A stretch of DNA of 64,000 nucleotides from Candidatus Sericytochromatia bacterium (GCA_018780035.1 JADMKE010000014.1:9271-73270), one strand, 5' to 3'. Shown: positions 8,646-64,000, counted from the stretch's first letter. Notes: generated from the letters alone by a model not told the origin. Made by a program: numbers and translations.

Positions 8646-9830
8646 GTGGGTTTATCTCAGGAACAAATCAATGCCCTGCTGGAAGGCACCGGAACATTTG
8701 ATGCCCCAGCACCGGCCCATTCAGCCGCTCCAGGCCCCGAAAATGAATTTTTTCTCAAGTTTTCCGCCATTGCCATGGAGGCCGGCTCCAGTGCCGTCTC
8801 ACAGGCTTTGGGCAAAACCGTCAAAGTCTCCCACCCCGAAGTCACCACCCAGACCTTTGAAGAACTTCAGCCCGAATTGCCTGTCAATCAGGTCTTGATC
8901 CGGACCGGTTATTCCTTGGGCGAAGAAATTCCCTCGCTGCTTTTGATCAAAGACTATGACGTGGCGGTCATCTTTGACATTTTAATGGGCAAGGACGGAC
9001 GCAACCCCGATCTGGAAATCAGCGATTTACAGACCAGCGCCATTGGCGAAGTCATGAATCAATTGATGGGTGCTGCCGCCACCGCACTCTCCCAGGAATA
9101 CAAACACAAAGTTGCCATGAAGGCCCCCGAAAGCCAATTGGTTCAACTCAGTGATACCTCTGCGATTCCACTTGAATTTACAAACCAACCGCTCTTGGTT
9201 TTAAAATACAATTTTGTGATTGAAGGGGTACTCGACAGCGAACTCCATGAATTGCGCCCGTTGGCCAAAGCCCAAAAATTGCAAAAATTACTCAGTGGTC
9301 CCAGCGCGGCCCCAGCCGCGACAGCGGCTTTTCAAGCCCCGCCAGCCCCAGCCCAACCCCAACAAATGCATCAATCGGGCCAGGCTGCTCAAGCAGCTCC
9401 TGCCGCTTATGGCCCGGCCCCCGGTTATTACCAAGAGCAGCACCCGGGAGGCTATGCCCCTGGCTATTACCCACCGCCTCCCAATCCGGCCTTTCAAGCC
9501 CCTGCCGCATCGGTGCGGCCAGCAGACTTCAGCCCACTGGTGCCGGGATTGCCCATGCAAGCCAACCCCAGTCTCGACCGAATTGTCGATATACCTTTGC
9601 GGGTCACCGTCGAATTGGGCAGCACCAAATTAAAAATCAAAAACGTGCTCGATTTGAGCAAAGGCTCGGTGGTTGAACTCGATAAATTGGCAGGAGAACC
9701 TGTCGATTTGCTGGTCAATGGCAAACTCATGGCCAAAGGTGAAGTTGTTGTGATCAACGAAAATTTTGGTGTACGCATCTCAGAGATCTTAGGGCCCATC
9801 GATCGTCTCAATCATTTGCGCGGAGATTAG
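8646..9830 (+). CDS. fliN: flagellar motor switch protein FliY-like (CheC-like N-domain plus FliN/SpoA C-domain)
   Basis: C-terminus [63 protein letters not shown] is the SpoA/FliN domain. The N-region has a CheC-like motif ([19 protein letters not shown]). A Pro/Ala/Gln-rich linker separates them. Confidence 0.85.
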
Positions 9831-10019
9831 CCCCGCTTGCGAGCGTTGCGATAGGGTTCTGACTCTGATAAAATAAGGGTAGTGTTGGAGCCTGGGCCTG
9901 TGACAGTTAATCAGAAAGCAGACGCTCAGTAGATTCATGTCTCAGAATTCATGCCAAAGGCATCCTTAAAGAGAAAGGTGAGTAGGTCCGCTGAGTCGGA
10001 TTGAAATCAAGAAATAATT

Positions 10020-10382
10020 ATGGCAGCAAGAGTACTAGTCGTAGACGATGCCGCGTTTATGCGCATGATGATTCGCGATATTCTGGTTAAAAATGGCTAT
10101 GAAGTAGCTGGCGAAGCCGCCAATGGTTCAGAAGCCGTTTTAAAATACCAGGAGTTGCGCCCTGATGTGACCACTATGGATATCACCATGCCAGAAATGG
10201 ATGGGATTACCGCCGTGCGTGAAATTCGCAAAATTGATCCCAATGCACGCATTATTATGTGCAGTGCCATGGGTCAACAGGCCATGGTCCTCGACGCCAT
10301 TCAGGCGGGCGCCCGCGATTTTATCGTCAAACCCTTTCAGGAAGATCGCGTCATCGACGCCATTAAAAAAGTTCTGCGCTAA
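10020..10382 (+). CDS. cheY: chemotaxis response regulator CheY
   Basis: RVLVVDDAAFMRMMI...DVTTMDITMPEMDG...FIVKPFQ is a canonical receiver with DD, D and K. Confidence 0.9.
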   Translation: MAARVLVVDDAAFMRMMIRDILVKNGYEVAGEAANGSEAVLKYQELRPDVTTMDITMPEMDGITAVREIRKIDPNARIIMCSAMGQQAMVLDAIQAGARDFIVKPFQEDRVIDAIKKVLR

Positions 10383-10409
10383 ATTTAGCGCAACCAGGAA
10401 GAGGTTCAC

Positions 10410-10739
10410 TTGCCACTCTCAGAACAGGTTGTAAGTGGGCAAATTCAGGCGACAGGCTGGCTAGAGTTGCTCCTAAAGCTAGCCCTGGTTCTTTGTCTGG
10501 TCTATGTGGCAGCCTTTTTACTGCAAAAGGGCTCTTTGGCCGCGCTGTTTTCTCGTTGGCGTCAGATCCCCGAAAACTCAGATGTCATGCGCACCCTGGC
10601 AGTGCATCCGCTCACCCCTCAGGTATCACTCTATTTGGTCGAAATTGAAAAGCGAAAATTGCTTTTGAGTGTTTCAGCCCAAGCGCAAGCCCAGCTTTTG
10701 CTGGATTTTGGCAAAGGCGAAGAGGAAATCGCCCCATGA
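10410..10739 (+). CDS. small single-TM protein, possible FliO/FliZ-like flagellar export component
   Basis: TTG start. A single TM helix (LELLLKLALVLCLVYVAAFLL) is followed by LYLVEIEKRKLLLSVS, resembling the FliO C-region. Position after cheY matches the Bacillus-type che-fla gene order. Confidence 0.45.
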   Translation: MPLSEQVVSGQIQATGWLELLLKLALVLCLVYVAAFLLQKGSLAALFSRWRQIPENSDVMRTLAVHPLTPQVSLYLVEIEKRKLLLSVSAQAQAQLLLDFGKGEEEIAP

Positions 10740-11167
10740 AAAAAAATGCAAGTTTGTCTTTGTCTTTTTTTCCGCTCAAATTGGCTGCAGTTGCCGGGGT
10801 GTTAACGGCGTTCAGTGCGTTATTGGCCCAGGTACCAGCATTCACAGTCATCGTTAGGGGTCTTTTGGCTGTGTTGGTCTTTGCCCTTTTTGGCCAATTG
10901 CTGAGTTACCTCTGGCAAAGTCTGAATGCCATGGGACAAGCAAAAACAGAATCCCTCAGTGAGAACGCTCCAGAAGAGCCCAGCACAGCTCATACAGCGG
11001 CCACGCTCTCCACCCAGACCATTCCCGTCTACCCCTCCTCTGGTGGCCAAGCAGATTTAAGTGCCCTCCCCCCCTCTCACAGCCTGGAAAGCCCCAAAAC
11101 CACACTTTCATCGCAAATCCTGCCCGTATCACTGGCCGGGCAGCCACCCACAACAGGGAAAAAGTAG
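10736..11167 (+). CDS. hypothetical membrane protein
   Basis: Two hydrophobic helices and a Ser/Thr/Pro-rich tail. Its start overlaps the upstream stop by 4 nt. Confidence 0.45.
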   Translation: MKKNASLSLSFFPLKLAAVAGVLTAFSALLAQVPAFTVIVRGLLAVLVFALFGQLLSYLWQSLNAMGQAKTESLSENAPEEPSTAHTAATLSTQTIPVYPSSGGQADLSALPPSHSLESPKTTLSSQILPVSLAGQPPTTGKK

Positions 11168-11551: not shown

Positions 11552-12922
11552 TCAGACACTGAAAACAGGTTCATCAAGAAAAGGCTGTAACTGTAAAATC
11601 AGGCGACCGAGAGAGCCTTCCAAGGTCTGTTTTTCAGGTTCTTGAAATGCCGAGAGCTTAAACACCCCTTGAATAATCCGGCACTGTTCCCGCAGAGCCG
11701 CTTTGCCCTCGTGTCCGGCAAACCAAGCATGAATTAACTCTCCATGCTGCATAAAGATCTCACCTTTTTCGTGTCTAAAAAAATCATGCACGGCAATTCG
11801 GCAGGATTGGCGCGAGCCCCCCAAAACCTGAAGCACGTCCAATAAAAGCAGATCTTTGAGTTCACCGCTAAAGCGCTGGTCAAAAAATTGATGATGAACC
11901 CAGGTTTCTAGTTCCTGTTGTTGATCTGGCAAAGAGAAAAAACCGACCATCTGGGGCCAACGCAAACAGCTAAACAACTCTGAAGACAAAATGGTGCCGA
12001 ATAAAATTACAGGGCCTTTATACACCAAGCGCAACCAGCGAAAAAACTGGAATGGATTGTCTTCAAGCAGGTCTGTATGCAGAAAGATCAAATCGGGAAC
12101 CTGATTTTGCAGCTCTTTTTCGAGCTCCCCCAAAGAACAAGTCAGCAATTGCTGCTGGGCTGCAGCAAAGCGCTTTGTGAGTGCCGTTTTTAATTCCGAC
12201 CTGGGTTCACAGAGTACAAACCGGGCAGGCTGGAAAAGATTTTCCCCCTCTATTTTCTGCTGATCTAAATGCAGCGCTGAATTGGCCATCAGATGGTTCA
12301 TGGGCATCTCGATGGAATAATATTCAGGCTTTGCCAACTCAGCTTCAGAGAAAAAGCCACTTTTCATCTTCATGACGGCATAAAAGGCCTCTTCTCCATG
12401 CAACTGGTCAAACACAGCGTGGCGAATATGGCCCTGTTCAAAGAACAAAAGCCCCTCACGTGCGGTTTCGGGCTCAGCCAGATAGAGATGCCTTTCGCGC
12501 TGAGACAAAGCCACCAATTGGTTTAAGTCAAACAAATTCAAGCGTGAGAAATGGTAATGTAAACCGGTATAGGCCTGAGCCAAGGCACAGATTTGAGCCG
12601 CCAGAGCAGGCATATCAAAGCTTTCAGCCGGGAAAACGCTCAGCTGTCGATTGCGCTCCACCCGTTCGTTTTCAGGGGCCATTAGTAAAATCTGGGTGGC
12701 CGGAAAATGGGTATTTAAAACCCGAATACTTTTGTTGAAGCGATCTCCCCAAAAGGGAAGATCTGCCAAAACAATCTGAAAAGACTGCTCTTTTAAAAGT
12801 GCAAAGACCGTCTCAGGCGAATCTGCCACCGCTGTTTCAAATTTTGCGGGAGACAAAAAGTGATGAAACATATCTCTTTTTAAAGGGGATTGAACTGCGA
12901 TCAAAACAGAAATAAGGGGCAT
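11552..12922 (-). CDS. DUF4388-domain regulatory protein with N-terminal receiver-like fold
   Basis: N-terminus ISVLIAVQS...QIVLADLPF is receiver-like without the canonical DD. DUF4388-like segments are present: LLLDVLQVLGGSRQSCRIAVH...GEIFMQHGELIHAWFAGHEGKAALRE. Confidence 0.7.
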   Translation of the reverse strand: MPLISVLIAVQSPLKRDMFHHFLSPAKFETAVADSPETVFALLKEQSFQIVLADLPFWGDRFNKSIRVLNTHFPATQILLMAPENERVERNRQLSVFPAESFDMPALAAQICALAQAYTGLHYHFSRLNLFDLNQLVALSQRERHLYLAEPETAREGLLFFEQGHIRHAVFDQLHGEEAFYAVMKMKSGFFSEAELAKPEYYSIEMPMNHLMANSALHLDQQKIEGENLFQPARFVLCEPRSELKTALTKRFAAAQQQLLTCSLGELEKELQNQVPDLIFLHTDLLEDNPFQFFRWLRLVYKGPVILFGTILSSELFSCLRWPQMVGFFSLPDQQQELETWVHHQFFDQRFSGELKDLLLLDVLQVLGGSRQSCRIAVHDFFRHEKGEIFMQHGELIHAWFAGHEGKAALREQCRIIQGVFKLSAFQEPEKQTLEGSLGRLILQLQPFLDEPVFSV

Positions 12923-13205: not shown

Positions 13206-13979
13206 ATGCCAATTATGTCGCACACGCCACAAGAACTCGCCGCTTTTTGGCAGGATTATCTGCACCAGGGCCAAGCCCAGGCCCGAGACCAGCTGATTAC
13301 CCATTATCTGTATCTGGTGCGTTATGCTGTTTCGCGCATGTTGGTGCAATTGCCGCCCCACCTAGACGCCGATGATCTGATTGGCTATGGCCTGATGGGC
13401 CTGATTCAATCGGTCGAAAAATTTGATCCCGAGCGCGGGGTGCGCTTTGAAACCTATGCCATGACCCGCATTCGCGGCGCCATTCTGGATGAATTGCGTG
13501 CGATGGATTGGATGCCGCGTTCGCTGCGGCGCAAAGCCAAAGAGGTCGAGCAGGCCATTCGCAGCCTCGAAAACCGCACAGGCAAACCCGCCCAAGAAGA
13601 AGAGTTGGCCGCTGAATTGGGCATCGAAGTCGAAGAATTACACCAAATCCTGACCGACACCTCGTATCTGGTCGTCTCGTTGGACTATTTGCTCTCACCC
13701 GATAGCAATCTCAAAAACTGGGAAGAGAGCCTGCCCGATACCCGCGAGTCGAGCGACCCCACCTTGGCCGTGGACAAACAGGCCCAGCAACAGTCTTTGC
13801 AACAGGCTCTGGCGACCTTGCCCGAACGCGAACAAAAGCTGATCAGCCTGTATTATTTTGAAGGCCTGACCATGAAAGAAATAGGCAGGGTCCTGCAATT
13901 GACCGAAGCGCGCATTTGCCAGCTCCACGCCCAGTCGATTCACCGTTTAAAGGCCCGCATGCAAAATTTATTGGCTTGA
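13206..13979 (+). CDS. fliA: flagellar sigma factor sigma-28 (FliA/WhiG family)
   Basis: The sigma-70 r2 motif is LITHYLYLVRYAVSR...DLIGYGLMGLIQSVEKFDPERGVRFETYAMTRIRGAILDELR. The r4 helix-turn-helix is LTMKEIGRVLQLTEARICQLHAQ. Confidence 0.9.
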   Translation: MPIMSHTPQELAAFWQDYLHQGQAQARDQLITHYLYLVRYAVSRMLVQLPPHLDADDLIGYGLMGLIQSVEKFDPERGVRFETYAMTRIRGAILDELRAMDWMPRSLRRKAKEVEQAIRSLENRTGKPAQEEELAAELGIEVEELHQILTDTSYLVVSLDYLLSPDSNLKNWEESLPDTRESSDPTLAVDKQAQQQSLQQALATLPEREQKLISLYYFEGLTMKEIGRVLQLTEARICQLHAQSIHRLKARMQNLLA

Positions 13980-13984
13980 AACGG

Positions 13985-14197
13985 GGAAACAGCCTCTGTA
14001 TATATTGATTAATCTTTAATAGTGTGATATACGTATACGCGTGCATACTATACACAAAATCATCTGGATTGCTAATTTTCAATAATAATTTAATACCAAA
14101 TTAAATATAAGGAATGAGATTCAAAATTGTTGAACATTAGACAAGAATCACATCCTAAACGCTATTCTCGAATACATTCCTCACAAGGTAAAATCCA
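13985..14197. promoter_or_regulatory. AT-rich leader of the island with ~33 bp dyad-symmetric element (TATACGTATA / ACGCGT / GTATAC)
   Basis: The element is gtgtgatatacgtatacgcgtgcatactatacac at ~14023..14056, inside an extremely AT-rich 200 bp stretch upstream of the methyltransferase. Confidence 0.35.
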
Positions 14198-17100
14198 GTG
14201 TCAAAGCCATTAACAGCACTATACAAGGAACTCGATTTTTTAAATGGTGCTCTGTATACAGCTTCCGATACACCCTTAAAAGAGGTAAGTCCCCTTGAAT
14301 GGGTTGAAAAAGGCGAATGGTTAGCAGCAGCCAAAAGAGCTGGGGCAGAAAAAATCTTCTTTATTGAGAATAACCCAGTCGTTGTGTTTGCTGAGTGCGA
14401 TTCTGCTCCTGAAGAAAAGATCAAAGCCTTTAACCGAATCTGGAGTCTTGCTCGACCACGTTTATTATTTCTAGCCTCTCCCACTGAGATTACAGTATTA
14501 GATTTAGCCCAAGAACCCATTTTAGGTAATAAGCCGAATGAAAAAAACCGAAGCCTTAAAAGCTTGGCCACGCTTCAAGACATTTCCAAAATTGCCATTG
14601 AACTCCAAGCCTTCCATCGGAATAATGTTGAGTCGGGCAAGGTTTTTGGAGAAGAGCTTTTTGGTGATTTAAAGCATCGTGCAGATCAGGCTCTTATACA
14701 TGATATCAAAGCCGTTCGATTTGAATTGCTTGCTGCTGGTTTGCCCGTAAAGTATGCCCATGCATTGATAGGGCGCTCAATCTTTATTCGTTATTTAGAA
14801 GACAGGGGAATTCTAACAAAAGAATATTTTTTGAGTGTAGCAAAAAATAATGCCGAATGGTCAGCCTTGCTAAGTAAAGAGTATGTAGGATTGGGAGTAG
14901 ATCTATCCGAACAAGAAGTTTATTATCCTCGTGTATTATCTTCAAAATCGTTCTCGTATGCTTTATTCAAACAGTTAGCCCATGATTTTAATGGGGATAT
15001 GTTTCCCGACATTCAAGAAGAAGAGCAAGCTATCACAGAAAAGCAATTAGAACTTATTCAAGGTCTACTTTATGGAGAGGTGGGTCGGCAAAAAAAATTA
15101 TTTTTCTTTTCCTATCGATTCGACATAATCCCTCTTGATCTGATCAGTTCTATTTATGAAGAGTTTTACCATTTAGCCCTTAGCCCTGAAAACAAAAAAA
15201 ACAACGCGCGGCAAGATGGGGCATATTACACACCGCCTGTTTTAGTAGAGTTTTTGCTGGCTAGAATTTTAGATCCTGAGACCCTTGAAAAGAGTCCACG
15301 TATTTTAGACCCGGCTTGTGGATCGGGTATTTTCCTTGTTGAAGCCTTTCGCAGAATTGTTAGGTATGATTGGCATAAAAAGAATAAACGCCTGGATTTA
15401 AGTGAACTCAAATCAATTCTGAAAAATCAGATTGCTGGCATTGAAATCAATGGTGAAGCAGCCCGTATTACAGCATTTAGTCTATACCTAGCTACACTAC
15501 ATTATCTTGATCCACCCTCCATCATGGGGCAAATTAAGAGCGGCCAGAAACTGCCTAATTTATTAGTCTCGAATACAGTATCACCCAATCACTTTAACTG
15601 TATCTGGGCAGAAAAAAATGCTTTTAATTCTCAGGAGATAACAGAAAACCAACCTCTATTAGAAAAATTTTGCTCTGGAACCACTGACATCGTTATTGGC
15701 AACCCGCCATGGGGAGCACCAGGTAATAAAGCTGATAAAAAAACAAAAGCCCGCGAAAACACTATGTTGGATTGGTGTAAAAGTAATTCTAGACCTATTG
15801 GAGACAAAGAGCCTTCTCAAGCCTTTATCTGGCGAGCCTTTGATTTTGCTAAAGTTGGTGGAAAGGTTGCGCTACTTGTATCTGCCGGTGTTTTGTTCAA
15901 ACACGGGACAACTACCCAGGAATTTCGTGAAAAATGGTTGGATTCTGTACACTTAAATGAAGTATTCAACTTTAGTCATGTACGCAAATTCTTTTTTAAT
16001 GGTGCAGTGTCTCCTTTTGTAGGAATTACATTCACTAAACAAGCGCTCTGTAAAGAAAACGAAAATGTCACCTATTATTGGTCTGCAAAGCAGGTTAACA
16101 CTTTAACCAAAACACAAGCTGTCGTGTTTTCAAAATATGATGTTCATCTTCTAAAAAATGAAGATCTGAGTTCAAATATTAGTTGGAAAACATACTGGTT
16201 TGGCCGTTCTGAAGATCTAACGTTAATTAAATTGCTATTGTCTAAAAAATCATTATCTGAGTTTATCGAGCATGCGGGAAGGGGTTATGAGATTGCATCT
16301 AAAACCGAAAATGCCTCAGTGCTAGCAAAATATAATGCTCTTGATATCCGCTCCTTCTCTCGCTATGACGCAATATCTTTTACTTCCCCTCCAGAACGAG
16401 TTTATAGATTCGGAAACACCGCACTTTACTCTGGCAAACGGATTTTGGTAAAAAGAGGGATTAGCGAAAACAGTGAACCAAAAGGCCAAATTACGGCAAG
16501 GTATGAAGAAGACGATTTTTGTTTCAGAAATGCAATTCACGGCATTAAATTACTGGATGACCAAGAATGGCAATACAAAGTCTTATTAGGCATTCTTTGG
16601 TCATCCCTCACAAGATACTTTTTTTTCATGGTTTCGTCTAATTGGGGGCTCTGGCATCATGAAATACACCTGAAAGATGAATTGTTAAAGCTTCCGGTCG
16701 TGCTTGATAATACACACCCGGCTACCAGCAAAATTATTGCTATTGTGGATTCTCTCCGGAACTCTAAAACCGCTGAGAACAGTCTGTTAGATCGTTTGGC
16801 CGATAATTACCTTGAAATGCAGATAAAACGCAATCAATGGGAAGAGGAGCTTGATCAAGCTGTTTTCCAACTTTATGGACTGAACAATGAGCATCAAGAT
16901 TTGATTAGAGATTTTTGTGAGATCACATTACCCTATTTGTATCAACCTTTTACCTCTGAAGGTATTGCCCCTGTTACTGAACGAGATAATGAGTCTTCGT
17001 TAAAAGAGTATATTCAATTATTTTCGAGACGCTGGAACGCATATCTAAACGAAGATGAAGAAATGAGAGCAACCATTCATATTGGTGCTGACAATAACTT

Positions 17101-17392
17101 AGTCGCATTAGAATTCTTTCCATCTGAAAAAGGTGATAGTTGGGACTTTACGCCACACTATAATACTTGGGGAGATGTTCTTAAGGAAATGGGCAAGTCT
17201 TTGCATAACCCACTTGGAAATTCACAAATTGTTTTAGAGGGCATTGTTCATGCTGTCACCGATGATGCAATTATTATCATCAAAAGGAATGAAAAACGTT
17301 TCTGGACAAATAGCTTAGCAAGAGAAGATGCTGATGCTACCCTTTGCAAACGTATGCTTGCCGATAATATAAGGAGCAAAATAGAGGTTTAA
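14198..17392 (+). CDS. large gamma-class N6-adenine DNA methyltransferase, PglX/MmeI/Type IIG-like (no recognisable N-terminal nuclease or ATPase)
   Basis: GTG start. In order: helical-region motif FDIIPLDLISSIYEEF; motif X QDGAYYTPPVLVEFL; motif I ILDPACGSGIFLVEAF; motif IV TDIVIGNPPWGAP. Roughly 550 aa follow after NPPW, which is a candidate TRD. No Walker A motif. Composition is visibly AT-rich compared with flanks. Confidence 0.85.
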   Translation: MSKPLTALYKELDFLNGALYTASDTPLKEVSPLEWVEKGEWLAAAKRAGAEKIFFIENNPVVVFAECDSAPEEKIKAFNRIWSLARPRLLFLASPTEITVLDLAQEPILGNKPNEKNRSLKSLATLQDISKIAIELQAFHRNNVESGKVFGEELFGDLKHRADQALIHDIKAVRFELLAAGLPVKYAHALIGRSIFIRYLEDRGILTKEYFLSVAKNNAEWSALLSKEYVGLGVDLSEQEVYYPRVLSSKSFSYALFKQLAHDFNGDMFPDIQEEEQAITEKQLELIQGLLYGEVGRQKKLFFFSYRFDIIPLDLISSIYEEFYHLALSPENKKNNARQDGAYYTPPVLVEFLLARILDPETLEKSPRILDPACGSGIFLVEAFRRIVRYDWHKKNKRLDLSELKSILKNQIAGIEINGEAARITAFSLYLATLHYLDPPSIMGQIKSGQKLPNLLVSNTVSPNHFNCIWAEKNAFNSQEITENQPLLEKFCSGTTDIVIGNPPWGAPGNKADKKTKARENTMLDWCKSNSRPIGDKEPSQAFIWRAFDFAKVGGKVALLVSAGVLFKHGTTTQEFREKWLDSVHLNEVFNFSHVRKFFFNGAVSPFVGITFTKQALCKENENVTYYWSAKQVNTLTKTQAVVFSKYDVHLLKNEDLSSNISWKTYWFGRSEDLTLIKLLLSKKSLSEFIEHAGRGYEIASKTENASVLAKYNALDIRSFSRYDAISFTSPPERVYRFGNTALYSGKRILVKRGISENSEPKGQITARYEEDDFCFRNAIHGIKLLDDQEWQYKVLLGILWSSLTRYFFFMVSSNWGLWHHEIHLKDELLKLPVVLDNTHPATSKIIAIVDSLRNSKTAENSLLDRLADNYLEMQIKRNQWEEELDQAVFQLYGLNNEHQDLIRDFCEITLPYLYQPFTSEGIAPVTERDNESSLKEYIQLFSRRWNAYLNEDEEMRATIHIGADNNLVALEFFPSEKGDSWDFTPHYNTWGDVLKEMGKSLHNPLGNSQIVLEGIVHAVTDDAIIIIKRNEKRFWTNSLAREDADATLCKRMLADNIRSKIEV

Positions 17393-18072
17393 TGGCACGT
17401 AAAGCACTGCCCTCTTTTTCTGCCTTATGGGAAAAACATGAAGAAATTTATACAGGAGTGTTTAAGGCCGCTCTTCAAAGGTTGTCTGAAAAACATTTAG
17501 ATCTCTCACATGAAGATCGGATATCCGAACAGCTTTGCTTAATATTAAATCAGGTCTGTTATGAGATAAGTAATCCTGAGAGAGAAGTTCCAAATCCAAT
17601 TTGGGAAAATCCAATCCATCCTGTATCAGAGGACGAGCTTACAAATGGACGAAGCAACAAAAGGCCTGATTTTACTTGCAAGAAAGTAAACAGCTTTGCA
17701 ATAGATCCTAGCGAACATGAAATTAGTTTTCATATTGAATGTAAACGGCTAGGAAGCCCGACAAGTAGAACATGGGTTCTAAACGAAAGATATGTTACGA
17801 ATGGTATTGCACGTTTTGACTCAGCGCATGAATATGGTAAACGCGCAAATTCTGGCATGATGGTTGGCTATATTATCGATATGGAAGCAGACCAAATACT
17901 GGCAGAAGTAAATCAACATCAAAAACGTCATCTATCACATAACCCGACACTATCGTTTAACTTTGATGGAAACAAAGTAAGTACAGCGGTACAAAATTTG
18001 CAAAGACAAAATGTCCTTCCTCAAAGATTTAGGCTTTCGCATCTTTGGGTTGATTTAAAGACCTGCGCATAG
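17392..18072 (+). CDS. PD-(D/E)xK-like putative restriction-endonuclease-fold protein, translationally coupled to the methyltransferase
   Basis: TAATG stop/start overlap with the methyltransferase. Motif: KRPDFTCKK...EISFHIECKRLG, i.e. PD ... ExK. A diverged paralogue is at 63003..63674. Confidence 0.7.
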   Translation: MARKALPSFSALWEKHEEIYTGVFKAALQRLSEKHLDLSHEDRISEQLCLILNQVCYEISNPEREVPNPIWENPIHPVSEDELTNGRSNKRPDFTCKKVNSFAIDPSEHEISFHIECKRLGSPTSRTWVLNERYVTNGIARFDSAHEYGKRANSGMMVGYIIDMEADQILAEVNQHQKRHLSHNPTLSFNFDGNKVSTAVQNLQRQNVLPQRFRLSHLWVDLKTCA

Positions 18073-18273
18073 ACGCTAAATATGGTGAATTTCCTTCGCT
18101 ATTATGAAAAAGAATGACGAATAAACATGTTATCAATCAACAGTATCGCTGGAAGCGTTAAAAGCAGAAACAGCTCACGAATCTGAGTCTGTAACAGGGC
18201 TTAGGTGCGTTGGTTTGGTATCAATCGCAGTATAATAGCCGCAGCACTTACTCAGATAGAAAAGGAAACCCCC

Positions 18274-18579
18274 ATGTTTGTGATCACCAATCAACTCTCT
18301 GTCAAACCTGAATTTGCCGAAGCCATCGAAAAAGCCTTTTTGGAAAATATTGAGGGGATACAAGCCCTACCAGGTTTTCAAGGCTTTCGCTTTTTAAGAC
18401 CCCTGACCCCCGAAACCACGCCATTTCTGGTTGAAACAACCTGGGCAGATCAGGCCGCTTTTGAGAATTGGAAACAATCGGACCATTTTAAACAGAGCCA
18501 CAGCGGCATGGGCCAATTTCGCGAGGCCTTTTACGCTCCGCCCAAAATGGGTCAATACAGCCTGAGTCACAGCATCTAA
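18274..18579 (+). CDS. ABM-domain (antibiotic biosynthesis monooxygenase-like, dimeric alpha+beta barrel) protein
   Basis: MFVITNQLSVKPEFAEAIEKAF...GFQGFRFLRP...WADQAAFENWKQSDHFKQSH. An RBS aaaggaaac lies 8 nt upstream of the ATG at 18274. The track ORF started earlier, at 18205. Confidence 0.65.
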   Translation: MFVITNQLSVKPEFAEAIEKAFLENIEGIQALPGFQGFRFLRPLTPETTPFLVETTWADQAAFENWKQSDHFKQSHSGMGQFREAFYAPPKMGQYSLSHSI

Positions 18580-61627: not shown

Positions 61628-61879
61628 ATGTCCAAAAATTGGCAACTTCAAGAGGCAAAAAATAAATTCAGTCAGGTGGTCGATTGCGCGTGTAACGAAG
61701 GCCCCCAAATTGTGACACGACACGGAAAAGAAACCGTGGTGATTCTCTCACTTGAAGATGACCAAGAACTTTTAAAGCCCCAAAACGCCTTGGTCGATTT
61801 TTTTGCGGCATCCCCTTTAAAGGGCTTGAATTTAGATCTGGAAAGAAATGCTTCAGCACCCCGACCTGTTGATTTATGA
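61628..61879 (+). CDS. Phd/YefM-family antitoxin
   Basis: MSKNWQLQEAKNKFSQVVDCACNEGPQIVTRHGKETVVILSLEDDQELL is the typical Phd/YefM fold. ATGA overlap with the following PIN toxin ORF. Confidence 0.85.
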   Translation: MSKNWQLQEAKNKFSQVVDCACNEGPQIVTRHGKETVVILSLEDDQELLKPQNALVDFFAASPLKGLNLDLERNASAPRPVDL

Positions 61880-62019
61880 AATATCTGCTGGATACCTGTC
61901 TTCTCTCTGAATTACTCAAGCCACAACCCCAAGAGACTGTGATTGAATGGTTTCAAACGGTTCCAGAAACACAGCTCTATTTGTCTGTTTTGACCCTGGG
62001 AGAACTTCATAAAGGGTGA
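61876..62019 (+). pseudogene. vapC: vapC (PIN-domain toxin) truncated after 47 codons
   Basis: MKYLLDTCLLSELLKPQPQETVIEWF...VLTLGELHKG then TGA. A full PIN domain is ~130 aa. TTAGCAA-type AT-rich repeats follow immediately, and composition drops to AT-rich. Confidence 0.75.
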
Positions 62020-62138
62020 GGGCAAGTTACAAGTTTAAAACCGGTGCTAGATTTAGCAAATTAGCAATGGTGTCAAGGGCAGTGAGTTAGTAAGGTAGTA
62101 ATTAGCAAATGACAATAATTCTTTTAAAAATTCAACAA

Positions 62139-62903
62139 TTAAATTTTTATATCAGCTGGTGAATTTCTTTTTTGAGAGCTTTCTTCTTTACTCATAAAAT
62201 CTTTATACATTCGGATATTGTTTTTTAAAATATTCGAATCTTTTGTCGCTTCAGATCTTGATCTTATTTTTAATGTTACATAATCTCGATTTCCCAACAA
62301 ACCTGTACTACTAACTTCATATCCATATTTTTCCCCCAAATAAATTTTTACGTTTTCTGCCCAAGCAAAAATTTTAAATTGAGAATTTTTCTCAATTTGC
62401 TCTCGAACATATTCGCCTCGGGTTTCTTCTGTATATTCTGTTCCTTGAAAAATTAACTTTGACCTAGAAAAATCATCAGCGAGACTTTTGCTATAAACCT
62501 TTGTTAACAGAAGTTGAGCTTTTGAGTTTTCTCGAGTCCAAATATCTAAATATTCTACATCCTCCCATAGTCTTGAATCAGTGTATTGACTAATTTCTTT
62601 ATCTCGATTATATTTTCTTTTTACAAGAGAAAGTGTTTCTTCTACTAAGTCGGCTTTTTTATCGCCCATTCGATTGGAAGTAGGATATGAAAGTTCAATA
62701 TCTAGGAAAACATTATCTTGCAACTGGCGAAATGCAATTATCCGCCAGACATCCATAGAATCAAGAGGACCAATATAATAGGTAGCTAAAAACGGATGTC
62801 TATTTATCCAATTAATGGTATCTTGGTATTTGTCTCCAGGAAGAGCATAAGCAGAATGACAAATCGATACAAATACTGATGTTAATAACAATATTTTTTT
62901 CAT
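62139..62903 (-). CDS. secreted hypothetical protein (AT-rich island 2)
   Basis: Signal peptide MKKILLLTSVFVSICHSAYA. Lys/Glu/Tyr-rich with low-GC codon usage. Confidence 0.6.
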   Translation of the reverse strand: MKKILLLTSVFVSICHSAYALPGDKYQDTINWINRHPFLATYYIGPLDSMDVWRIIAFRQLQDNVFLDIELSYPTSNRMGDKKADLVEETLSLVKRKYNRDKEISQYTDSRLWEDVEYLDIWTRENSKAQLLLTKVYSKSLADDFSRSKLIFQGTEYTEETRGEYVREQIEKNSQFKIFAWAENVKIYLGEKYGYEVSSTGLLGNRDYVTLKIRSRSEATKDSNILKNNIRMYKDFMSKEESSQKRNSPADIKI

Positions 62904-63002
62904 ATAGTCAATATTCCTAATATATCAATTATTTCTGACTCTAAATGAGTCCCAAGGTACACTTTCTGATGTTTGGCAAATGGCGAAGAATTTTAAGGTA
63001 AT

Positions 63003-63674
63003 TTAAACATCGGCAGAAACTATCGTTGCTCTGAAATCCAAAAAAACATGCAATAAATCAAGATGACTGCCATCTGAGCGGGTATGCTTACTTTCCCATT
63101 CATGGGGCAAATCTTTGAGAACCTGGACTTTTTTTAGGGGTTCAACAATGTTTAAAGTTGGATCCTCTTTTGAATTATCAAAGATCTTTTGTAATTGTCT
63201 AAACCAATGATCTGGAGATAAGTCCTGAATATAAGCCAACATTCCCGCTTCGGGCTGCTCCACGGCATACTCACATTTCAAAAAACACTGCATACCCCCA
63301 TCACCAGTATATTTACGGATAGTATGAGTACCTTTTTTTAAACGTTTGGCCTCAAAGCAAAATTTGGGTCGTGGTTTTGTGTGACTGTTAGAAATCACAA
63401 TATCTATGCGTTTGCGATTTTTTCCAGAAGCGGAAACATGTGGAACATGGGTTTCTTCTCCGATATGATAGTGTTCATATTCTTGTGGAGTGTCTCGATC
63501 ATTAAATCTTAAGTCTATGGCTTCTGTTAGCCAACCAGTGATATCTTCTTCTTGATTTTCGGGAGTCACTTTTGATTTGATATCTTCGTATCCCCAAGCT
63601 AAAAGCTGATGCACACACTCTCTAACTCTCGAAAAGTAAGTTTGCCAGAGAGCGTCTGGCTTATTTAAAATCAC
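63003..63674 (-). CDS. PD-(D/E)xK-like protein, paralogue of the 17392..18072 protein
   Basis: KRIDIVIS...KFCFEAKRLKKG...YTGDGGMQCFLKCEYA aligns to RPDFTCKK...ISFHIECKRLGS...YVTNGIARFDSAHEYG. The N-termini also match (ALWQ vs ALWEK). GTG start overlaps the upstream ORF stop (GTGA). Confidence 0.65.
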   Translation of the reverse strand: MILNKPDALWQTYFSRVRECVHQLLAWGYEDIKSKVTPENQEEDITGWLTEAIDLRFNDRDTPQEYEHYHIGEETHVPHVSASGKNRKRIDIVISNSHTKPRPKFCFEAKRLKKGTHTIRKYTGDGGMQCFLKCEYAVEQPEAGMLAYIQDLSPDHWFRQLQKIFDNSKEDPTLNIVEPLKKVQVLKDLPHEWESKHTRSDGSHLDLLHVFLDFRATIVSADV

Positions 63675-64000
63675 ACAAACGCTCCTGAATAACTCAGAAT
63701 CTCAGCAATGATTTCATCAGCATCAATCATGGCTTGGGTACATGTCCAATCTATCAAACGCGGAGTTTTCCAGATATGATAATATTTCCCATCCAAAACA
63801 CGCAGACCTTGTTGAACATAGAGCCATTGGCTAAAAGGCTTTTTTAAAATCTGCCATAGATGCTCATCTTCCTCAGATAGCTCTTCAAGTTTTTGAATAT
63901 AGGGAGCAAGCGGCTCTAGAGCATCAGTTATTTCTACAGTACAGGAAATAAATTCCGAGTATTGTTTTATGTTTATGAGATGATGTTTGTATGCAAATGA
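63671..64000 (-). CDS. hypothetical protein, N-terminus off-window, translationally coupled to the PD-(D/E)xK paralogue
   Basis: The minus-strand frame is open from the window end to the TGA at 63671..63673 (...KTPRLIDWTCTQAMIDADEIIAEILSYSGAFV*). No domain recognised. Confidence 0.5.
   Translation of the reverse strand, partial: SFAYKHHLINIKQYSEFISCTVEITDALEPLAPYIQKLEELSEEDEHLWQILKKPFSQWLYVQQGLRVLDGKYYHIWKTPRLIDWTCTQAMIDADEIIAEILSYSGAFV

Follow-up and report, generated by a model that had tools for sequence, protein, structure and literature searches.

What kind of system is encoded by the AT-rich island that follows the fliA gene in a genome of Candidatus Sericytochromatia bacterium, and which of its two proteins reads the DNA? 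The island lies in a stretch of 64,000 nucleotides (GCA_018780035.1 JADMKE010000014.1:9271-73270), which was analysed as a whole and is called the window here; positions are counted from its first letter. It carries a gene for a large gamma-class N6-adenine DNA methyltransferase and directly behind it a gene for a small nuclease-like protein, together referred to as the cassette. Judging from the sequences, the cassette would be a split, Type IIG-like (MmeI-like) restriction-modification (RM) module with its nuclease in trans, and we give this reading a probability of about 60%. The parts of the cassette are the following.

14198-17392, plus strand: gene for the 1064-aa gamma-class N6-adenine DNA methyltransferase with a putative fused target-recognition region, GTG start
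14198-14602, plus strand: N1 domain (aa 1-135), conserved but without catalytic residues, where the nuclease may dock
14603-15097, plus strand: N2 helical domain (aa 136-300) with the conserved AHALIGRSIFIRYLEDRGIL helix, highly conserved, all-helical in the predicted model (predicted local distance difference test, pLDDT, 73-89)
15098-16057, plus strand: catalytic domain (aa 301-620), with motif I DPACGSGIFL at 15308-15337 and motif IV NPPW at 15701-15712
16058-16717, plus strand: hypervariable, putative target-recognition region (aa 621-840)
16718-17389, plus strand: conserved C-terminal domain (aa 841-1064), without Pfam match
17383-17394, plus strand: translational-coupling junction with AGAGG followed by TAATG, where the last base of the stop TAA (17390-17392) is also the first base of the ATG (17392-17394)
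17392-18072, plus strand: gene for the 226-aa PD-(D/E)xK nuclease-like protein

The original prediction, made from the sequence alone, had described an AT-rich island of about 4.2 kb after fliA, a 1064-aa open reading frame (ORF) with the full gamma-class motif set and a long tail, a 226-aa ORF whose ATG overlaps the methyltransferase stop, no N-terminal nuclease motif, no ATPase, and no partners of the bacteriophage exclusion (BREX) system or of the defence island system associated with restriction-modification (DISARM). All of this anatomy was confirmed. Its interpretation as a novel module held in part: a Type IIG-like methyltransferase without nuclease is coupled to a small PD-(D/E)xK protein in a non-standard layout, and what is new is limited to the architecture and the nuclease family. 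The GC content of 13980-18204 is 0.384 vs 0.502 for the window, the lowest among all 4.2-kb windows of the 64 kb (mean 0.505, sd 0.034), and it goes back up from about 18.2 kb, to the right of the cassette. GC at third codon positions (GC3) is 0.32 in the methyltransferase gene and 0.28 in the small gene vs 0.65 in fliA. By its low GC and GC3 the island stands out as foreign DNA, and the gene pair as horizontally acquired.

The methyltransferase carries the motifs FDIIPLDLISSIYEEF (aa 308-323), YYTP (343-346), DPACGSGIFL (371-380) and NPPW (502-505), and about 560 aa extend beyond motif IV. In an alignment of 20 homologues the motif residues were mostly invariant or nearly so, with D371, C374, G375, S376, G377, N502, P504 and W505 completely invariant. 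Pfam models Eco57I, N6_Mtase and MmeI_Mtase matched over aa 314-616. The best PADLOC match was REase_MTase_IIG (PDLC03603, E 1e-52), aligned over aa 52-1042, which means that whole-protein relatives, N-terminal part included, are within the set behind the "Type IIG" models. Searches of the whole methyltransferase against PDB, by sequence and by profile, matched only the motif-I region of BseCI, HsdM, BrxX/PglX and MmeI.

The small protein matched no Pfam, NCBIfam, PADLOC or PHROG model and no PDB sequence, including any PDB endonuclease, and its named homologues were called hypothetical in every naming source. No homologue was found in phage genomes. Its putative catalytic residues are E41 (17512-17514), D93 (17668-17670), E116 (17737-17739) and K118 (17743-17745). 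Across 37 homologues E41, P92-D93, H114, E116-C-K118, Y148-G-K-R, S154-G155 and G159-Y160 were invariant. The genes of 12 more remote small proteins (15-32% identity) follow related methyltransferase genes in other bacteria, and in these proteins E41, D93, E116, K118, Y134, M157 and H217 were still invariant. In the predicted model D93 stands just before strand 96-99, and E116 and K118 are inside strand 115-120. The protein thus has the D...(D/E)xK motif of the PD-(D/E)xK superfamily, with the additional invariant E41, and this E-D-ExK constellation argues for metal-dependent phosphodiester cleavage. The core of the protein appears to resemble the BamHI-family endonucleases (BamHI, OkrAI, BstYI). 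The best structural matches were Type IIP enzymes of about equal size; Foldseek against PDB gave no significant match.

Do the two genes belong together? We scanned for loci of the small gene with one genome per species, and almost all loci came from metagenome-assembled genomes (MAGs). The scan gave 58 loci in at least 12 phyla, covering Bacillota, Desulfobacterota, Planctomycetota, Acidobacteriota, Nitrospirota, Spirochaetota, Cloacimonadota, Thermotogota, Lentisphaerota, Chlorobiota, Chloroflexota, a lineage of the candidate phyla radiation (CPR) and Gammaproteobacteria. A methyltransferase homologue was directly upstream of the small gene in all 55 testable loci; the other three end at a contig edge. 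The junction is also conserved: AGAGG stands 5 nt upstream in the Sericytochromatia locus, and a 1-nt stop/start overlap (TAATG, TGATG or TAGTG) was kept in 32 of 37 complete homologous pairs. The same gene order was found in three more public contigs (one metagenome and two MAGs), on nine plasmids of cultured bacteria, on two isolate chromosomes (Pleomorphomonas and Denitromonas) and in a second island of the Sericytochromatia genome. The plasmids were those of Agrobacterium (pTi_CFBP2407), Clostridium botulinum Loch Maree (pCLK), Bradyrhizobium elkanii (pBel61), Sagittula, Ciceribacter, A. tumefaciens (pAtK224b), Methylobacterium oryzae, Burkholderia gladioli and Pseudomonas frederiksbergensis. 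Their methyltransferases are remote relatives (22-31% identity), each followed by a "hypothetical protein" of 180-250 aa, and the small proteins beside the plasmid and chromosomal relatives belong to the small-protein superfamily. In the cultured carriers the pair is annotated as "N-6 DNA methylase" and "hypothetical protein".

The flanking genes were unrelated between loci, and a third conserved gene was absent from the neighbourhoods inspected. ATPase, PglZ, BrxC and Drm genes were likewise absent, both from the Sericytochromatia locus and from the surroundings of the homologues. The pair is an obligate, mobile cassette, widespread (hundreds of metagenomic clusters contain it) and not peculiar to the Sericytochromatia genome. 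In some other hosts it has defence genes nearby: a Type I RM system in L001 (with RhuM), AbiE in L005 and L071, and SIR2 in L066. At one locus AbiE is found together with housekeeping genes.

These results bear on the explanation that an orphan or regulatory methyltransferase stands before an unrelated gene, or that the small protein is no nuclease (a degenerate fold, or a structural or specificity cofactor). The lack of a match to any curated family and the empty Foldseek result would agree with it. However, co-occurrence in 55 of 55 loci with the overlap kept across phyla is against an unrelated neighbour, catalytic residues invariant at 15% identity are unexpected for a degenerate fold, and the patchy occurrence, low GC and mobile surroundings agree with a defence or selfish module. 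We consider this explanation very improbable.

Several observations on the copies in other genomes are recorded here. Many proteobacterial copies (among L066-L074, L146 and L147) have a gene of 96-158 aa just upstream of, or overlapping, the methyltransferase start, annotated as XRE, MerR or hypothetical. Controller genes are known from RM systems, and these small upstream ORFs recall them; by this analogy they may be controller (C-protein-like) genes. Some copies seem to have degenerated. In L010, L031, L041 and L064 (the isolate Methylovulum psychrotolerans) an intact small gene stands beside a methyltransferase gene broken into two or three frames, and in L048 the small gene is broken by about 2.2 kb. 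An intact nuclease gene beside a broken methyltransferase gene would fit a nuclease that is harmless alone, if the decay is real and not an assembly error.

Where does the specificity lie? The methyltransferases of 38 pairs were cut into domains and the identities compared domain by domain. Mean pairwise identity was 0.56 for N1 (aa 1-135), 0.64 for N2 (136-300), 0.65 for the catalytic domain (301-620) and 0.63 for the C-terminal domain (841-1054), and 0.51 for the small protein. For aa 621-840 it was 0.42, with a minimum of 0.26. The identity of this region was uncorrelated with that of every other methyltransferase domain (rho 0.04-0.15). The small protein tracked the other domains, called the scaffold here (rho 0.44-0.49), and not aa 621-840 (rho 0.15). 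Mantel tests agreed with this: nuclease vs scaffold gave rho 0.49 (p 0.0005), nuclease vs aa 621-840 gave rho 0.15 (p 0.045; partial rho 0.11 controlling for scaffold), and aa 621-840 vs scaffold gave rho 0.11 (p 0.11).

Two pairs of close relatives show the region exchanged. L053 and L054 are 91% identical in the scaffold and 91% in the nuclease, but only 35% in the recognition region. Along the chain their identity is 83-100% over aa 1-600, 17-56% over 601-840 and 70-100% over 841-1054; the borders of the swap are sharp, at about aa 600 and 840. Similarly, L007 and L008 are 86% identical in the scaffold and 84% in the nuclease but 39% in the recognition region. This pattern matches the shuffling of recognition domains in Type I S subunits and in the MmeI family (PMC3874165). 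Since recognition regions are swapped with a constant nuclease, the nuclease need not match the recognition region, and these sequence comparisons make it probable that the nuclease lacks specificity and that the methyltransferase directs it.

The main rival is a classical Type II (IIP or IIS) pair, in which the small protein would be an autonomous BamHI-like homodimer reading the same site as a large M.TaqI-like methyltransferase. Separate R and M genes, in M-then-R order and overlapping, are common in Type II systems. The structural matches to Type IIP enzymes of equal size agree with this rival, and so does a weak TaqI_C match in the methyltransferase (Pfam, aa 741-833, E 0.015). But an autonomous enzyme would need to change its specificity in step with the methyltransferase, and the nucleases remain 84-91% identical across the swaps, the few differences between those of L053 and L054 being scattered. 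The 38 systems fall into 22 recognition-region types (clusters at 60% identity), yet the nuclease family keeps 36-93% identity and tracks the scaffold. Nor does a classical pair give a role to the conserved N-terminal region of about 300 aa and the 220-aa C-terminal domain. A classical Type II pair is thus unlikely, though it is the alternative which we take most seriously.

What, then, might the conserved N-terminal and C-terminal parts do? The N-terminal 310 aa have no sequence relatives in PDB. In N1, F55, P60, F64 and W82 were invariant in both close-family alignments (20 and 25 sequences), and F54, N58, N59 and C67 additionally in the 20-sequence alignment; across seven methyltransferases of 23-42% identity, P60 and W82 were the only invariant residues. 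No conserved acidic/lysine triad (D..ExK) was found in aa 1-135 across the 20, 25 or 7 aligned sequences, and no Pfam nuclease family matched there. The positions that might form such a triad are not constant: E57 can be replaced by D or Q and E66 by D, T or N, and most sequences have G in place of D68. The predicted order of elements in N1 is alpha-beta-beta-alpha-beta-beta (pLDDT 60-80). We also considered N1 as a degenerate copy of the small nuclease, which would make a pseudo-dimer, and rejected this candidate after profile-profile comparison (probability 0.2%, E 0.36-0.43). N2 may correspond to the helical connector that Type IIG enzymes, PglX and HsdM have, a sequence similarity which we take as a lead only. 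The C-terminal domain coevolves with the catalytic domain (rho 0.83). Within it, the highly conserved segment aa 1014-1050 (17237-17347), with IIIKRNEKRFWT.SLAREDAD, matches the phage family phrog_36071 of unknown function (E 1.8e-6).

A large gamma-class methyltransferase without its own nuclease recalls PglX, and this brings in a third explanation: an indirect, non-cleaving system of BREX-like logic, in which the methyltransferase discriminates self and the small protein blocks replication, nicks DNA or triggers abortive infection. The NCBIfam PglX models indeed match the methyltransferase partly, and PglX proteins themselves were once listed as Type IIG in REBASE, as told in a 2025 review (PMC12707154). 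However, the scores are far under the cut-offs (BREX_2_MTaseX 60 bits vs 400, BREX_1 49 vs 500), and PglZ, BrxC and BrxL were in none of the neighbourhoods inspected. The invariant E-D-ExK residues of the small protein, arguing for cleavage, are also against it. We regard this explanation as improbable, less likely than the classical Type II pair.

The split Type IIG-like reading can be put as a mechanism. The 1064-aa protein would combine methyltransferase and specificity subunit in one chain, with the exchangeable aa 621-840 reading a short DNA site. Adenine N6 methylation (motif IV NPPW) would mark host DNA as self and protect the host. Restriction would fall to the 226-aa protein, as a PD-(D/E)xK nuclease whose core would resemble that of BamHI, translated by coupling from the same mRNA as the methyltransferase, so that no nuclease should be produced unless the methyltransferase is translated first. 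It might be recruited or licensed by the methyltransferase through a conserved part of the scaffold, most plausibly the non-catalytic N1 domain, which seems to occupy the place where single-chain MmeI and BpuSI carry their nuclease, and it would cut when the bound site is unmethylated. From the sequences we infer methylation, DNA cleavage, a physical complex, docking at N1 and defence against phages or plasmids; the single steps would follow from the anatomy and from how Type I, IIG and III systems are known to behave. In the wider form of the proposal, the cassettes represent a distinct and widespread RM class (a "Type I without a motor", or trans-acting Type IIG) whose BamHI-fold nuclease is licensed only when docked on the methyltransferase at an unmethylated site. 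For this wider form we see the chances as about even.

Four points weigh against the split reading. First, the argument on specificity assumes that regions of 35% identity read different sites. Recognition regions about 35% identical that read different sites are usual in the Type I and MmeI families. Second, with 226 aa the small protein has the size of a complete sequence-specific Type IIP enzyme like BamHI, and autonomous recognition is physically possible. Third, the model of the full-length methyltransferase is poor (pLDDT 52), and the fold of N1 and any docking surface on it are uncertain. Fourth, no fusion of nuclease and methyltransferase was found, so that a complex lacks "Rosetta stone" support. 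Among 1.84 billion representatives, a profile search detected 442 clusters (50% identity) of the small protein; no fusion was present in the best 150 of the 442 representatives, which were 87-293 aa long (the shorter ones partial), nor in the best 120 of a diverse-profile search. The best 120 methyltransferase homologues were all 1054-1102 aa, without fused nuclease. These results have another side: close homologues that are fused single-chain Type IIG enzymes would have made this pair a split variant, and none turned up in these searches.

The surroundings of the cassette were inspected for promoter, borders and further members. The features are the following.

13206-13979: FliA-like sigma factor gene (Pfam Sigma70 r2/r3/r4)
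13980-14197, plus strand: AT-rich intergenic leader from the fliA stop to the methyltransferase start, presumed promoter or regulatory region; the fall in composition begins here
18181-18206, plus strand: terminator-like hairpin 3' of the cassette, at the right edge of the low-GC island (from a consensus scan only)

The methyltransferase GTG start is preceded by AAGG at 7 nt. The leader has no ORF of at least 30 aa able to encode a controller protein, and a scan of its plus strand for the sigma-70 consensus gave no convincing match. At 14020-14060 it has imperfect palindromic TATAC/GTATA repeats (tgatatacgtatacgcgtgcatactatac), which could be an operator. The next gene to the right encodes an ABM monooxygenase (Pfam). 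Its ORF was listed as 18205-18579 from GTG 18205, but the true start is probably ATG 18275, because residue 24 is the first one in the Pfam match and AAGGA stands before that ATG; with this start the hairpin falls in intergenic space. In L003, too, the next gene after the pair is an ABM gene, and we considered ABM as a third member of the cassette; the two ABM proteins are unrelated, and the candidate was dismissed as coincidence.

No empty insertion site was found in the closest relative located (L075, FliA 80% identical). There, synteny with window positions 9000-11029 leads directly into fliA and breaks off at its stop codon, after which L075 has housekeeping genes; the exact borders of the island are not definable from the comparison. 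A gene on the minus strand for a 456-aa response-regulator/DUF4388 protein (11552-12922), upstream of fliA, is missing from L075. By this comparison the 3' end of fliA is a rearrangement breakpoint. The island edges were inspected for flanking repeats, integrase and tRNA, which gave no meaningful repeats and no mobility gene.

A second island lies at the end of the window (61628-64000; L065:347-5443), with GC of 0.32-0.39. It contains the following parts of a second pair.

63003-63674, minus strand: second, diverged copy of the small nuclease gene, with E, D, ExK, Y, M and H in common with the first copy
63671-64000, minus strand: last 109 codons of the island-2 methyltransferase gene, which encodes 1017 aa in full and continues beyond the window; the translation is the end of L065:347-3400

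The original prediction took island 2 for the same small protein with a different partner. The impression of a different partner arose from the cut at the window edge: on the public contig it is a methyltransferase of 1017 aa with N6_Mtase, MmeI_Mtase and Eco57I matches and a 4-nt overlap with the small gene. "The same" was too strong for the small protein, which shares the invariant residues but is a remote relative of the first copy (17-26% identity, pairwise E 0.03, hhalign probability 17%). Between the two methyltransferases the alignment covers aa 49-834, N-terminal domain included (25% identity, E 1e-50), and their best PADLOC models are the same; of the DISARM models, only DrmMI gave a match to the island-2 enzyme, a marginal one. 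The genome holds two diverged copies of one two-gene architecture. Directly after the island-2 nuclease gene is a gene for a 254-aa protein (62139-62903) with a signal-peptide-like N-terminus and without Pfam family. Next comes a Phd/YefM antitoxin gene (61628-61879), whose sole neighbour is a 47-aa ORF; no recognisable toxin is there.

The cassette is RM in its logic, and no new principle of defence is involved. PADLOC Type IIG models match the methyltransferase full-length, and annotation pipelines will file the cassette as ordinary Type IIG. If our reading is true, a whole clade now annotated automatically as single-chain Type IIG would be two-subunit systems, misread as PglX once was, and the accepted scheme, with a fused nuclease in Type IIG and a separate nuclease with a motor in Type I and III, would miss a category common in nature. 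The small protein is a candidate restriction-endonuclease family with hundreds of members, some of them on Ti plasmids and on toxin plasmids of Clostridium botulinum. A constant nuclease with one exchangeable cassette (aa 621-840) would, if true, be a natural platform for reprogrammable restriction enzymes with new specificities. Two diverged copies in one non-photosynthetic relative of the cyanobacteria (Sericytochromatia) point to an actively exchanged module. Full-text searches of the literature gave no description of the gene pair; REBASE was outside that search, and its curators are possibly aware of the R gene.

Among known systems, the cassette is closest to Type IIG/IIL enzymes such as MmeI, DrdV, BpuSI and Eco57I. 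They share a gamma N6-adenine core (motif order X, I, IV) with Eco57I/MmeI_Mtase signatures, a length of about 1000 aa, a helical region before the core and an exchangeable recognition region fused after it. In the MmeI family specificity diversifies through change of the recognition region (PMC3874165). But in Type IIG enzymes as described by Loenen et al. 2014, which are gamma methyltransferases, the N-terminal cleavage domain is "permanently present" (PMC3874165), whereas the N-terminus of the cassette methyltransferase is conserved without catalytic residues, its nuclease is a separate 226-aa protein of an unrelated family with an apparently BamHI-like core, and it has an extra conserved C-terminal domain of about 220 aa. 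As it lacks the N-terminal cleavage domain, the cassette should not be filed as Type IIG, despite the resemblance otherwise.

Type I systems (HsdM/HsdS/HsdR) have in common with the cassette a separate restriction subunit, specificity coming from the methyltransferase component (as we infer here for the cassette), shuffled recognition domains and a gamma-class methyltransferase, that of the cassette being related to HsdM. Unlike them, the cassette has no superfamily 2 (SF2) translocase/ATPase, ResIII, helicase or Methylase_S and consists of two conserved genes only; one recognition region in the methyltransferase chain would carry all its specificity, and its restriction subunit is only 226 aa. 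It differs from Type III in the absence of a motor. With BREX PglX/BrxX it shares a large gamma-class methyltransferase without its own nuclease, with partial hidden Markov model (HMM) and PDB matches; it lacks PglZ, BrxC/PglY, BrxL and BrxA, scores far under the family cut-offs and has a small nuclease as partner. From DISARM it differs in that DrmA, DrmB and DrmC were in none of the neighbourhoods inspected.

With classical Type IIP systems (TaqI-type gamma methyltransferases, BamHI-family endonucleases) the cassette shares M and R genes, an R core apparently like that of BamHI, OkrAI and BstYI, and a weak TaqI_C region. However, its methyltransferase is 2.5 times larger, with conserved extra domains, and its nuclease does not covary with the recognition region. 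The nearest precedent for a separated nuclease is the proposed split Type IIG of Haloferax volcanii (HVO_A0006 and HVO_A0237; PMC4389544), where nuclease and methyltransferase parts are also separate polypeptides. In Haloferax the nuclease is a fragment of the canonical N-terminal Type IIG domain, flanked by transposons and encoded at another place on the plasmid (PMC4389544), whereas the cassette nuclease is a distinct family, always adjacent to its methyltransferase and coupled to it, and the methyltransferase keeps a non-catalytic N-terminal domain.

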